Shown here: one piece after another, positions 45,455 to 60,983 of the stretch
How the letters are laid out: each line of letters starts with the position of its first letter
How positions within the stretch are numbered: position 1 is the first letter of the stretch
From: Synergistales bacterium
GTDB taxonomy: Bacteria > Synergistota > Synergistia > Synergistales > JAFGMB01
DNA: 64,000 nucleotides
Direction: 5' to 3'
NCBI GenBank assembly: GCA_963666205.1
Contig: OY762654.1
Location: forward strand, 2,368,001-2,432,000
Notes under the pieces: model-generated
Told to the model about the DNA's origin: nothing
The model's database searches: none
The model's input: the letters and a program-made list of their open reading frames with translations, nothing else
Program-made: the position numbers and the translations under genes

Positions 45455-46087
45455 TCATAGAGCCAGAACCAGTTTTTCTGCTTTCATAAATACAACACCG
45501 ATATTTTCCAGTTCCTTCTGTCCCCTGGGGTATATGTGGGATATGGCATCTTCTATGGCCACGATCCTGTAGTCCCTCTCACTGGCTTCATAGATTGAAG
45601 CCCTTGGACAGTTGGGGAAATTAAAACCACTGAAAGCAAGTGTATTAACTTTCATCTCCCTGAGAAGAGAAGAAAGGGGAGTCTGGTAAAAAGCTCCGAA
45701 ACGGGGTTTGTAAATAATGAATTCGTATGGCGATATCTTCTGGATACCTCCACCTAGAAGAACTTTTTCATCAAGCATGGTTTGAGATGAAGGCAGAAGT
45801 TCTTCTGCTATCTGAACCCCTTCTGAACCAGGGCGTAAAAGACCTGAGCCGCCTTCTATTGATGCTCTTCTGCACAGGTCTGCGTTACTCCCGTCTTCTT
45901 TATAGATCCTGACTATGTGTATAACGGGTTTATTGAGAATACGGAAAGTCCTCACTGCCTTTGAGATAGAAGGCAGTACATGAATCTTTTCGTCCCTTTC
46001 CTGTGAGTTTTCGGAAATAAAATCCCTTTGCACGTCTATGGTGATAAGGGATATGGACATAAAATCAGGTTCGGTGTATCCATTCAT
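45455..46087 (-). CDS. Isochorismatase-family cysteine hydrolase
   Basis: IDVQRDF, KPRFGAF, FPNCPRAS. Confidence 0.88.
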   Translation of the reverse strand: MNGYTEPDFMSISLITIDVQRDFISENSQERDEKIHVLPSISKAVRTFRILNKPVIHIVRIYKEDGSNADLCRRASIEGGSGLLRPGSEGVQIAEELLPSSQTMLDEKVLLGGGIQKISPYEFIIYKPRFGAFYQTPLSSLLREMKVNTLAFSGFNFPNCPRASIYEASERDYRIVAIEDAISHIYPRGQKELENIGVVFMKAEKLVLAL

Positions 46088-46506
46088 TTCATATCCCGCA
46101 GTTGTTCTGCCCTTTCTGTTGCTTTGTCCATCAGTGCTATCCTGTTTACCACGGCCCTCTCGAAGGTTCCCGTAAGGATTTCTCCGAGGGCGTCCCTGGC
46201 AGATATGTCAAAAAGTATCTTGTTCCCTTCTATTGAACGCAGAACAACTCTGAAGGTCACTCTTGTTCCAAGCAGGCTCGGCTCGTCATGGGTTATGGTG
46301 AGGGATCGGCCTATGGTAATAAAACCCTCGGGAAGATATTTGTCCGTTACCTTTGTTGATGCTTTGACAAAGGTTTCTACGCATGCCGAAGTGGAAAGAA
46401 GCTGGTTTAGATAGACAGACTGATTACCTACTGTATCGTCCATTTCAATAACCTTGTTGACCTCATAAGATTCCCCCGGTTTGAGTATTTCCTTGAGATC
46501 GAACAT
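46084..46506 (-). CDS. FlK-like hotdog-fold thioesterase homolog
   Basis: LLSTSAC, LPEGFITIG..LTITH, FDISARD..GEI..G..ERAVV; ATG at 46506 follows GGAGGG. Confidence 0.75.
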   Translation of the reverse strand: MFDLKEILKPGESYEVNKVIEMDDTVGNQSVYLNQLLSTSACVETFVKASTKVTDKYLPEGFITIGRSLTITHDEPSLLGTRVTFRVVLRSIEGNKILFDISARDALGEILTGTFERAVVNRIALMDKATERAEQLRDMK

Positions 46507-46601
46507 TATAAACCCTCCTTTAAAGATCAGCATGTAAATAACGATCTATATCTATGTTCTTATTTTACATTAAAGCAGTACATAATAAAATAATATCAGT
46601 G

Positions 46602-53097: not shown

Positions 53098-53253
53098 CCT
53101 ATCAGCTCCGTAGGTATTATTATTTCTATTCTACCAAGTACAGTAAAAAAGGTTTGGAAAATATTTATAATTTACAGGATTTGATATATACTAACGTTAA
53201 ATAGAAAAAGCTTTAGCATGCGATTGGGATAATCTTTATTTGAGGTGATGTGT

Positions 53254-53646
53254 ATGTCCAGACGTGCGGTCCTTGTTGTAGTTCTTGTTGTTCTGGTAGT
53301 AGCAGGTTTTACCTTAATAATCGGTAAAGGAACGTCCTGGTTCAATGCCTCCTCTGGTCCGAAACTTGAGATTGACGAAGATGCCCTGACCCAGATGAGC
53401 GGGAGTGGAAACGAGTTTTACGTAAGACCGGGCAGAGCAGGCTGAGGTGCTCCGCTGCAGGCGCTCGTGAAGCGTGGAAAACCCGGAAAAGATCCGGACA
53501 GTTATATTCAGTGTAATTCAGGAGACATATGTCTGTGGGTTCCAGGAGATCTTGAGTTCAGGGATAATCTGGTCCATGTGATCCTTGACAAGGGCCGGGG
53601 CAGGAAAATATTACTTGTAGAAACTGCACTTCTGTCTTCTCAGTAG
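53254..53646 (+). CDS. Putative selenoprotein A (CC/Se-motif, HesB-like), N-terminal membrane anchor; TGA at 53443-53445 read as Sec
   Basis: GAGGTG RBS. The frame stays open for 66 codons after the TGA to TAG at 53646: ...EFYVRPGRAG-U-GAPLQALVKRGKPGKDPDSY...LWVPGDLEFRDNLVHV...LLVETALLSSQ. Homologous to the neighbour on both sides of the TGA. Confidence 0.8.
53451..53478 (+). promoter_or_regulatory. Candidate bacterial SECIS hairpin for selenoprotein A
   Basis: GCGCT-CGTGA-AGCGT stem-loop at 53461-53475 (+16 from the TGA), with an alternative TCCGC/GTGGA pairing. Confidence 0.4.
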
Positions 53647-53749
53647 GACTTGAGTAAATTCAGTAGTTTTCCGGTTCTGTCATTAGCTTTTTAGTTGTAG
53701 AATGTTCTGAAGAGATTGAGTTTCTATTCTTTTGAAAGGAGAAATATGC

Positions 53750-54133
53750 ATGAAAAACAAACTGTTATTGTTGTTAGTTGCCGTGATAATTGTATTCACT
53801 ATGATCCTTCCTGCGATGAGTGCAGAGGATCTTGTGCTTGATATCACTTCTGTGGCAAGGGCTGAAATGGCTCCGCAGGGGTATGAGTGGTTCGTAAAAC
53901 CCGGTACATATCAGGGTTTCTGAGGAGAACCACTTTCCGCTCTGGTTCGGAGCGGCATGCCTGAAAAGCCGGAACAGTTCAACCTTCTGACTGAAGAGGA
54001 TATGAAGGTCTGGGTACCCAAGGGAATGACATTCCAGAACAATCTTGTAAAGATAATAGCCCTTCCCTATAAGGGGAAAAAAGTTTTAAAGGTTTCCACT
54101 GCCCAGACCATGGAGGGTGAAGGCTGCGATTAG
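53750..54133 (+). CDS. Putative selenoprotein B (CC/Se-motif, HesB-like), signal peptide; TGA at 53921-53923 read as Sec
   Basis: AAGGAG RBS. The frame stays open for 69 codons after the TGA to TAG at 54133: ...EWFVKPGTYQGF-U-GEPLSALVRSGMPEKPEQF...VWVPKGMTFQNNLVKI...LKVSTAQTMEGEGCD. The terminator follows the TAG. Confidence 0.82.
53937..53955 (+). promoter_or_regulatory. Candidate bacterial SECIS hairpin for selenoprotein B
   Basis: CCGCTCTG-GTT-CGGAGCGG, an 8-bp stem (one G-U) starting +14 from the TGA. Confidence 0.55.
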
Positions 54134-54142
54134 TGTGTCAGT

Positions 54143-54182
54143 AATGAAAAGGGGCGGGTCTTCTGACTCGCCCCTTTTCATT
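54143..54182 (+). terminator. Intrinsic terminator closing the two-gene unit
   Basis: AATGAAAAGGGGCGGGTC-TTCT-GACTCGCCCCTTTTCATT, 9 nt after the TAG at 54133. Confidence 0.88.
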
Positions 54183-54272
54183 CTGATGTAACAGGAAATA
54201 TTTCTTTTCATTTTCATATAGTTGGATCCCTATTATAATGAGGCGATAATTAATTTAAAGGCGGTGTGCTGT

Positions 54273-59150: not shown

Positions 59151-60983
59151 ATGAAATCCGGTAACAAAGAGCCTAACAGGCTCATAAACGAAAGATCCCC
59201 CTACCTCCTGCAGCATGCCCATAATCCGGTGGACTGGTACCCATGGGGAAAAGAAGCATTTCAGAAGGCCAGGGAGGAAGATAAACCGGTTTTTCTATCC
59301 ATAGGTTATTCTACATGTCACTGGTGCCATGTCATGGAAAGAGAATGTTTTGACCACCCTGAAGTAGCAGAACTTATGAACGATGTCTGTGTCTGTATCA
59401 AGGTGGACAGGGAGGAAAGGCCTGACCTGGATGGGAATTTTATGGCAGTCAGCCAGGTCATGAACAACAGCGGGGGCTGGCCCCTTAATGTTTTTCTGAC
59501 ACCCGATGGAAGACCTTTTTTTGCAGGAACGTACATACCAAGGGAAAGGAAAGGGCAAATACCAGGTATGATGGATATCTTTCCAAGGGTCAAATGGCTC
59601 TGGTCTACCCAGAGGGAACAGATCCTCCAGTCTGCCGAAGGCCTTGTGGAATCTCTCAAAAAGGGTTCTTCCCTGGAGCCCGGAGATATGCCTGATCGTG
59701 TAGTTATAGATAGCTGTTTTAAGGAACTGGAGAAAAATTTTGATGAAGAATGGGGAGGGTTCTTTTCTGCACCTAAATTCCCCATGCCTGGTATTCTCCT
59801 GTTCCTGCTTCAGTACTGGCAGAACTATGGTGATGTGAGATCCCTTGAAATGGTTGAAAAAACCTTAACCAGAATGAGCCTGGGAGGTATATATGATCAT
59901 CTGGGCGGCGGATTTCACCGGTATTCTACAGATGAAAAGTGGTTCCTGCCTCATTTTGAGAAGATGTTATATGACCAGGCTCTTCTCATGGTGATCTATA
60001 CCAGGGCCTTTGCAGTTACAGGAGACCCCCTTTTCAAAAGGACTCTGGAAGATATAGCCGGTTATGTATTGTCCGATATGACATCTCCAGAAGGTCCTTT
60101 TTACTCGGCTGAAGATGCCGATAGTGAAGGAGTAGAGGGGAAATTTTATACCTGGGAACAGGGTGAAGTAATCAGTGCTTTAGGGGAAGAGGGGGAGTTT
60201 TTTCTCGAAATATACAACGTCGAAAAGGGCGGGAATTTCGATGAAGAGAGCTCTGGTAAAAAAACGGGTTCCAATATCCTGTTCAGGGAGAAAAGATTTA
60301 CAGAAATAGCCACTCAGAAAAATATCCACGAAGAGGAGATCTGTAATCTTATTGACCGTAACAGGGCAGATCTTCTTAAAGTCCGTAATGAAAGGGTAAG
60401 ACCCTTTAAAGACGACAAGATCCTCACGGACTGGAACGGACTGATGATAGCCGCTTTTGCATATGCTGGAAGGATATTGGGTAATATCGATTATATTAAC
60501 AGGGCTGAGAAGGCTCTTGACTTCTTCCTGCGAAAAATGAAAACTCCCGAGGGCAAACTTTTTCATAGGTATAGGGATGGAGAAGCTGCTGTTGAAGCCT
60601 TTCTTGATGACTACGTTTTTATGGTCTGGGGAATAAATGAAATATTCAAGGCTACCCGGAAGGAAGAACTCCTTCTTGAGTCCTTAAAGTTTATGGATAC
60701 CATGACCGTTCTTTTCTGGGATAACGAAAAAGGAGGTTTCTATGCTACTTCCGAAGGCTCTGAGGACCTGTTCTTCAGGAGGAAAGAAGCCTATGACGGG
60801 GCTATTCTTTCAGCCAATTCCGTAGCCATGGATAATTTCATTGAACTGGCAAAGCTTACAGGTAAAAATGAATTTACAGAGATGGCCAGGGTCATAGCGA
60901 GAGCCTTTGGACAGCAGGTAAGGCTCCTGCCTTCCTCCCATTCTTATCTGCTTGCCTCGGTGATGAAAATGGAGCATATCTAA
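59151..60983 (+). CDS. YyaL/SPATA20-like thioredoxin-domain protein
   Basis: [72 protein letters not shown]. Confidence 0.93.

Follow-up and report, generated by a model that had tools for sequence, protein, structure and literature searches.

Two small open reading frames (ORFs) in the genome of a Synergistales bacterium end at a TGA beyond which each frame stays open: do these TGAs terminate translation, or do they specify selenocysteine (Sec), and what kind of proteins would then be made? The frames lie in a stretch of 64,000 nucleotides (contig OY762654.1 of assembly GCA_963666205.1, positions 2,368,001 to 2,432,000), referred to here as the window. Under translation table 11 both plus-strand ORFs stop, at TGA 53443-53445 and TGA 53921-53923, respectively. 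An earlier note made from the sequence alone had proposed a hidden tandem pair of paralogous selenoprotein genes, and its coordinates and counts were all reproduced. When TGA is read through, gene 1 continues for 66 codons to TAG 53644-53646 and gene 2 for 69 codons to TAG 54131-54133, yielding proteins of 130 amino acids (P0001, Sec64) and 127 amino acids (P0002, Sec58). The two read-through products are paralogous (BLASTP: 35/90 identities, 39%, E 4e-20) with both TGAs in one alignment column, and a recount by hand of the part after the TGA again gave 25 identities in 61 columns. The region is almost certainly one operon encoding two paralogous selenoproteins (Table 1).

The source genome (G000) is complete, consisting of a single contig of 2.95 Mb. 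Searching it by tblastn revealed two further, unlinked paralogues, P0003 and P0004, each with a TGA at the aligned position; the P0003 locus was found with P0002 at E 4e-9 and with P0001 at E 1e-6. The C-terminal SSGDCN of P0004 is followed by a second TGA, which serves as stop. A profile of the four paralogues, which unites the window pair, the other two copies and their relatives, was then applied to 41 related Synergistales genomes and gave 58 matches in 30 of them, 56 of which contain at least one in-frame TGA. At the Sec column itself 55 of the 58 homologues carry TGA, and these span 10 families of the order; the remaining three have Cys (G013), Arg (G022) and TAA (G004:C138). The Arg homologue is a weak, divergent match. 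The TAA copy (L041, G004:C138:2150-3115) has its stop exactly at the Sec column (GRYRGT, TAA, GEQMSALV); it is probably dead, killed by a TGA-to-TAA change, or reflects an assembly error.

A sample of the whole phylum gave a consistent picture. Matches were obtained in 92 of 201 genomes, and among the matches listed 134 of 150 had an in-frame TGA. Eight of the 16 listed matches that lack a stop show Cys at the column; in the other eight, which make up a single divergent group, the residue is N, T, R or S. Trp was not seen at this position in any homologue examined; the earlier note had named Cys or TGA there as support for a Sec codon. The divergent group (L075, L083-L089) is a genus-level group from another Synergistales family, in which a Cys located nine residues further on is conserved (A-V-C-R) and the C-terminal tails are long and rich in Cys. 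In one further genome (G131:C1:2136707-2137484) a Cys-form copy (L081) and a Sec-form copy are adjacent.

The machinery for Sec decoding, to which the earlier note had pointed, is present in the source genome. selA (564.7 bits) and selB (364 bits) are adjacent to each other, and selD (333.7 bits) and a tRNA-Sec (77.1 bits) were also detected, all above the curated cut-offs; ARAGORN assigned the tRNA the anticodon TCA (UCA in the RNA). The selD gene (G000:C1:2905894-2906826, locus L010) has one in-frame TGA, and the selenophosphate synthetase of this organism is probably a selenoprotein too. Synergistetes have been described as a selenoprotein-rich phylum (Peng et al. 2016, PMC5029168). A reassignment of TGA throughout the genome was ruled out: the neighbouring AddB-like, FAA-hydrolase and oxidoreductase ORFs end at TGA and their read-through extends only into junk, so the genetic code is standard, as had been claimed before. 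The in-frame UGAs at 53443 and 53921 would accordingly be decoded as Sec by the SelA/SelB/SelD/tRNA-Sec system.

The codons after the TGAs were compared with those of a same-genus genome. For gene 2 we counted 13 synonymous versus 5 non-synonymous differences (dN/dS 0.086), and for gene 1 10.5 versus 16.5, with three times as many non-synonymous as synonymous sites (dN/dS 0.46). Synonymous differences are thus the more frequent per site in both genes: the post-TGA frame is conserved in relatives, and its codons are under purifying selection. Both genes are, with high probability, real selenoprotein genes.

A signal for UGA recoding was sought in the 48 nucleotides that follow the TGA, aligned for 55 Sec genes. 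A G and a U at positions +25 and +26, counted from the U of the UGA, are invariant in all 55, and RNAalifold independently predicts a 5-pair helix around them. In a 9-pair version of this helix 80.2% of the alignment cells are paired, compared to 37-50% when the 3' partner is slid by one to three columns. Changes on both sides were found in seven of the nine pairs; one pair of the helix is C-G in 24, U-A in 22 and G-C in 6 sequences. The covariation score of the helix was 0.318 versus 0.197 after shuffling, and none of 500 shuffles scored as high. The helix is located in the codons of a conserved A-L-V-E-S/G-G motif, and constraint on the protein could therefore mimic it. As a control, we compared Sec genes and non-Sec homologues in equal register: of 53 Sec genes (leaving out two with a one-codon insertion) 41 retain the full set of five core pairs, but of 16 non-Sec homologues only 1 does. 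This single case is the Cys copy beside the Sec copy in G131, and its retention of the helix suggests a recent change from Sec to Cys.

Both window genes have such a hairpin. That of gene 1 starts 15 nucleotides after the TGA and places its loop GU at +25/+26; in the orthologue of genome G001 its G-U pair is turned into G-C. That of gene 2 begins 13 nucleotides after the UGA in the centroid structure. The Sec insertion sequence (SECIS) of E. coli fdhF depends on an essential apical-loop G-U, namely G23/U24 counted from the U of UGA, and we take the geometry of the window hairpins to be that of this element. Like the fdhF SECIS, they lie inside the coding sequence just downstream of the UGA and present a G-U in the apical loop. 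They differ from it in a shorter stem, of 5-9 pairs, and in being embedded in the conserved A-L-V-E-S/G-G peptide, whereby sequence and structure constraints overlap. SelB would be recruited by a short GU-loop hairpin that begins 13-15 nucleotides after the UGA, within the A-L-V-x-x-G codons.

The pair appears to be transcribed as a unit. Metatranscriptome contigs from four runs of two studies match the region at 95-100% identity and together span 53211-54176. Individual RNA contigs bridge both TGAs and the spacer (for example run X2, record 6, 53269-53955), and the spacer is bridged by RNA-library contigs of all four runs. Cover starts at 53211 (run X1), with none within 53150-53186, and ends at 54176 (run X1) and 54151 (run X4), the depth being much lower after 54186. 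This distribution fits a single transcript running from the predicted promoter to the terminator. The promoter, upstream of gene 1, is a candidate by consensus match. The start ATG 53254 is favoured over ATG 53248 or GTG 53245 because a Shine-Dalgarno site is positioned six nucleotides before it. The spacer between the genes folds no better than its shuffles, whereas folding of 54134-54190 gave -38.6 kcal/mol (z -11; none of 200 shuffles equally stable). Hence the only strong hairpin with a U-tract in the region comes after the second TAG, in agreement with the earlier note; a consensus scan had missed this terminator, which was revealed by direct folding. In the hairpin region (54140-54190) an A-tract precedes the stem and a U-tract follows it, so that transcription could be stopped from both directions. 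We propose a two-gene operon that is transcribed from a promoter near 53164-53192, has a Shine-Dalgarno site for each gene and ends at a single terminator.

Table 1. Features of the selenoprotein gene pair and its paralogues (window positions unless a genome contig is given).
Feature	Position	Strand	Description
Candidate sigma-70-like promoter	53164..53192	+	TTTATA-17-TATACT upstream of gene 1; 9/12 consensus matches
Shine-Dalgarno site, gene 1	53242..53247	+	GAGGTG, 6 nt before ATG 53254; read from sequence
Gene 1 (P0001)	53254..53646	+	130 aa, U64; motif GRAG-U-GAPLQALV
UGA-1, read as Sec64	53443..53445	+	alignment column shared with TGA in 55/58 homologues
SECIS-like hairpin, gene 1	53461..53475	+	GCGCU / AGCGU stem, 5 pairs (one G-U), loop CGUGA
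Intergenic spacer	53647..53749	+	103 nt, without terminator; fold z +0.47
Shine-Dalgarno site, gene 2	53736..53741	+	AAGGAG, 8 nt before ATG 53750; read from sequence
Gene 2 (P0002)	53750..54133	+	127 aa, U58; motif YQGF-U-GEPLSALV
UGA-2, read as Sec58	53921..53923	+	conserved alignment column
SECIS-like hairpin, gene 2	53937..53955	+	CCGCUCUG / CGGAGCGG, 8 pairs (one G-U), loop GUU
Intrinsic terminator	54151..54178	+	10-pair GC-rich stem, loop UUCU, U-tract
P0003	G000:C1:578111-578440 (L023:1609-1944)	-	112 aa, without signal sequence; passes NF041239
P0004	G000:C1:1991792-1992184 (L024:1793-2185)	-	131 aa, signal peptide; ends SSGDCN

To which family do these proteins belong? Pfam gave no match for P0001 or P0002. 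The sole NCBIfam match was NF041239 (CC/Se motif family (seleno)protein, 'Moor_selen_rel'), whose cut-off is 40 bits: P0003 scored 48.7 bits, P0002 23.9 bits (E 3.3e-5) and P0004 20.4 bits. Among the relatives, 51 of 56 matched NF041239 at E <= 0.01. By sequence comparison the window pair is homologous to the CC/Se family, yet not a member by the curated score. Like the members of NF041239, the two are small single-domain proteins of about 100 amino acids with one Sec. They differ in carrying N-terminal export signals, in forming part of a separate, well-supported clade, and in having no Cys beside the Sec (A-G-U-G and G-F-U-G), with none at -3 or +1; 'CC/Se' is taken here, from the family name only, to mean a Cys adjacent to the Sec/Cys. 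They also depart from the CxxU pattern given in a table of PMC13188914.

The Moorella family was listed with 8 proteins in 8 organisms in supplement file 3 of Peng et al. 2016 (PMC5029168), as compared to up to 4-5 copies per genome here, and a 2022 review gives it without domain or motif (PMC9312934). The paper naming NF041239 uses none of the words 'signal peptide', 'periplasm' and 'secreted' in its text. The window pair represents an export-signal-bearing, tandemly duplicated form of this catalogued, uncharacterised selenoprotein family.

The earlier note had likened the motif to both CC/Se and HesB-like selenoproteins. The resemblance stands in so far as NF041239 is the only family found and a HesB/IscA fold is predicted (see below); it does not extend to family membership, the window pair falling below the NF041239 cut-off and the HesB-like models TIGR01911 (HesB_rel_seleno) and NF038090 (IscA_HesB_Se) giving no match at E <= 1 for any of the four paralogues, in searches whose HMMER filters remove most matches above about E 0.1. 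NF038090 was matched by one of the 56 relatives (E 0.0052). With HesB-like selenoproteins the pair shares fold class, small size, the placement of Sec at the first ligand Cys position of IscA/HesB, and genes that are routinely split by gene callers. It differs from them by its export signals and by the motif U-G-x-P (U-G-A-P and U-G-E-P) instead of the U-x-G-P given for them in PMC13188914.

Gene callers had been expected to split or miss such genes, and this is what we observed: when P0002 and P0003 were searched against 5.8 billion predicted proteins, each retrieved a single fragment of 72 aa. No full-length or Cys-form relative emerged from this collection, in a search that reaches only relatives sharing exact 5-residue words.

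For structure prediction, P0002 was modelled with AlphaFold from a 56-sequence alignment (pLDDT 86.3 overall, above 95 for the domain). In a VIA search of 48,161 representative chains the top seven matches were all of HesB/IscA fold, the next match having Z 2.1. The best were SufA (2d2a, Z 7.2), IscA (1r94, Z 6.9), DsrR (2k4z, Z 6.4) and IscA (1x0g, Z 6.3), followed by three with Z 4.6-4.8. The top seven matches of Foldseek belonged to the same fold group (best E 7.8e-3). The best sequence match of the family profile in the PDB was E. coli IscA (1s98, E 0.24), in which the Sec is aligned to Cys35. A HesB/IscA (A-type carrier) fold with Sec at the position of IscA Cys35 is therefore well supported as a prediction by the model, and both proteins would hold their Sec in the loop that in IscA contains this first cluster-ligand Cys. 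IscA/SufA structures (1r94, 1s98, 1x0g, 2d2a) provide the best whole-domain matches (Z 7.2-6.3, 85-95 residues aligned). In contrast to IscA/SufA, the window proteins show no significant sequence similarity to these carriers, and PF01521 (Fe-S_biosyn) matches neither of them, though it weakly matches two of the 56 relatives. The C-terminal CxC ligand pair of IscA/SufA is replaced by one tail Cys in P0002 and by none in P0001, and the window proteins are predicted to be extracytoplasmic.

This last prediction comes from the N-termini. P0001 starts with MSRR followed by 19 hydrophobic residues without a signal peptidase I-like site, making an uncleaved signal anchor probable. P0002 has MKNK, a hydrophobic core and PAMSA, of cleavable type; its orthologues have VSA, VLA, ALA or AIA in place of the PAMSA end, and these N-termini appear to fit signal peptidase I sites. 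Accordingly arranged, P0001 would be tethered to the cytoplasmic membrane and face the periplasm, while P0002 would be released into it. The P0001 start, MSRRAVL (53254-53280), also resembles a twin-arginine motif, and tatC is present in the genome (C1:1183426-1184070, 163.4 bits). Since the hydrophobic core is very hydrophobic, a Sec/SRP-type signal anchor is favoured, and export of P0001 by the twin-arginine translocation (Tat) pathway would be a tentative alternative.

Export signals set apart part of the family. A simple hydropathy rule picked out a hydrophobic segment at the N-terminus of 18 of the 55 Sec members. When the 56 rows were placed in a maximum-likelihood tree, a 15-row group was split off by a branch supported at 99/96; it comprises the types of P0001, P0002 and P0004 together with three sequences that come from a different family of the order. 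Of these 15 rows, 14 were flagged as exported, the last one being a borderline case. Another exported group, of smaller size, lies elsewhere in the tree. We propose that the window pair belongs to a Synergistales-specific, export-signal-bearing clade of the CC/Se motif family. The P0002 type, searched with five close post-TGA parts, was found in only four records of the genome collection, all of Synergistales: one metagenome-assembled genome (MAG) of Acetomicrobium hydrogeniformans and three Synergistales MAGs. The same-genus genome and one further genus also have the tandem of P0001 followed by P0002. The export signals and the two additional paralogues go beyond the earlier note.

The distribution of a second chalcogen gives a hint to function. 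Among the 55 Sec members, Cys directly follows Sec (U-C) in 13, and a Cys is found within the last 15 residues, in a Gly/Ser-rich tail, in 32. The two placements tend towards mutual exclusion: only two of the 13 U-C forms have such a tail Cys, compared to 30 of the 42 others; as the sequences are related, we read this as a pattern and attach no statistic to it. In all five tandem pairs seen, one gene has a tail Cys and its partner lacks it. The window pair follows this arrangement: the only Cys of P0002 is Cys126 in the tail EGEGCD, and P0001 has no C-terminal Cys. From this pattern we infer that the selenol works with one thiol, which would be Cys126 on a flexible Gly-rich tail in P0002, and the Cys directly after Sec in other family members. 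In the periplasm, selenol and thiol may form a selenenylsulfide redox couple or a soft Se/S ligand site, the latter possibly completed across a dimer. The paralogues possibly form a heterodimer in which only one subunit contributes a tail Cys. Export, partner-Cys chemistry and heterodimer are inferences of decreasing strength, in this order.

Taken as a whole, this explanation (one operon, decoding of UGA as Sec, an exported pair of IscA fold and a Se/thiol site) is in our judgement very likely. Several observations weigh against it. Single-sequence folds of 60 and 80 nucleotides after the TGAs are no better than shuffles (z -0.04 to +0.35), the signal emerging only from the comparison of 55 sequences, the hairpin of gene 1 has only 5 pairs, and Rfam at E <= 10 returned no SECIS family, its better hits being spurious ones on the terminator hairpin. 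The homologues share ancestry, which makes counts across them non-independent, and the dN/dS of gene 1 is based on few differences. P0001 has no NF041239 match at E <= 1, and P0002 stays below the cut-off. The fold matches score in the middle range (Z about 7, Foldseek E about 1e-2), and in sequence the match to IscA is non-significant (E 0.24). Export is read from N-terminal sequences alone, and a partner thiol is not a feature of the whole family, since Cys is absent from seven Sec members. The RNA evidence consists of contigs, which are no proof of one transcript and are mute on translation, and the libraries may hold DNA.

Could the proteins be strict A-type carriers? A dimer, either of one subunit or of P0001 and P0002, would then hold iron or an iron-sulfur cluster via Sec and Cys, with P0001 perhaps exported folded through Tat. 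The fold and the Sec at the Cys35 position speak for this, as do the recurrent tandem pairs and the Gly/Cys-rich C-terminal tails of many members, which resemble the CxC tail of IscA; the MSRRAVL start and the presence of tatC would suit the Tat route. Yet mature P0002 offers one Sec and one Cys only, P0001 lacks a tail Cys, and the seven Cys-free members as well as the two weak PF01521 matches in 56 are hard to reconcile with such carriers. Moreover, P0002 has an ordinary Sec-type signal peptide, a route for unfolded chains, and typical Tat signals are unlike the long, very hydrophobic core of P0001. We regard strict A-type carriers as unlikely.

In a more speculative variant, which we consider quite improbable, anchored P0001 and soluble P0002 would form a periplasmic heterodimer on the iron-sulfur-carrier scaffold, whose two selenols and one tail thiol hold or pass a cluster, metal or chalcogen. 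If true, A-type carriers would have a selenium-based counterpart outside the cytoplasm, and the constant pairing in tandem of a member with and a member without a tail Cys would be explained.

Alternatively, the selenoproteins might bind or hand over a soft metal, metalloid, sulfur or selenium species in the periplasm, such as Hg, Cu, As, polysulfide or a persulfide-type relay. Thiosulfate, sulfur and cystine are reduced by Acetomicrobium/Anaerobaculum species, and the top fold matches include DsrR, which has the IscA fold and belongs to a sulfur-oxidation system. The lone Sec with a vicinal or tail Cys furthermore resembles the CU/CC metal-handling motifs tabulated in PMC13188914 for other bacterial selenoproteins, among them SaoC and the MerB-like SaoL. 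Against this, there is no metal-resistance, sulfur-reductase or rhodanese gene beside the pair or at the related loci examined, and Pfam and NCBIfam searches revealed no sequence similarity to known metal chaperones; such a role seems improbable.

That the TGAs are true stops (in decayed genes or four unrelated small ORFs), or are read by a Trp or Cys tRNA, is very improbable: standard gene calling does end there, the protein collection holds only 72-aa fragments, the probably dead G004:C138 copy has TAA at the column and the single-sequence folds are unremarkable, but decay would not keep TGA at one column in 55 of 58 homologues from 10 families, the alternative residue is Cys and never Trp, the hairpin shows covariation and has disappeared from homologues without Sec, selection on the codons beyond the TGA is purifying, all parts of the Sec machinery are encoded, and a changed code is contradicted by the neighbouring genes that end at TGA.

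With two real selenoprotein genes as the favoured reading, the window genes are ones that gene callers miss or split and that are out of reach of the curated model; selenoprotein counts for Synergistota are therefore probably too low, the source genome alone having four copies. The 'Moorella hypothetical' family would gain a predicted HesB/IscA fold, an exported clade and a partner-Cys rule, by which this Cys is either vicinal or in the C-terminal tail. Should export and the Se/S couple be confirmed, an A-type-carrier scaffold would operate outside the cytoplasm of an anaerobe, which would provide a handle on the role of the family.

The genes around the pair were inspected as well. The FAA-hydrolase-family gene beyond the terminator is the sole conserved neighbour of the related loci examined, and neither the upstream AddB/AddA-like genes nor the downstream 2-oxoacid:ferredoxin oxidoreductase genes gave a functional clue. 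A few kilobases downstream (59151-60980, plus strand) a 610-aa protein with an N-terminal Thioredox_DsbH/DUF255 thioredoxin-like domain (E 9.7e-75) is encoded, for which we found no link to the selenoprotein pair. Elsewhere in the window, an ORF on the minus strand (46087-46533) matches the fluoroacetyl-CoA-specific thioesterase family FlK (PF22636, E 4.9e-25) and has an isochorismatase-family gene and an iron-alcohol-dehydrogenase gene beside it; from the phylum Synergistota, dehalorespiration of fluoroacetate has been reported (PMC10838667).

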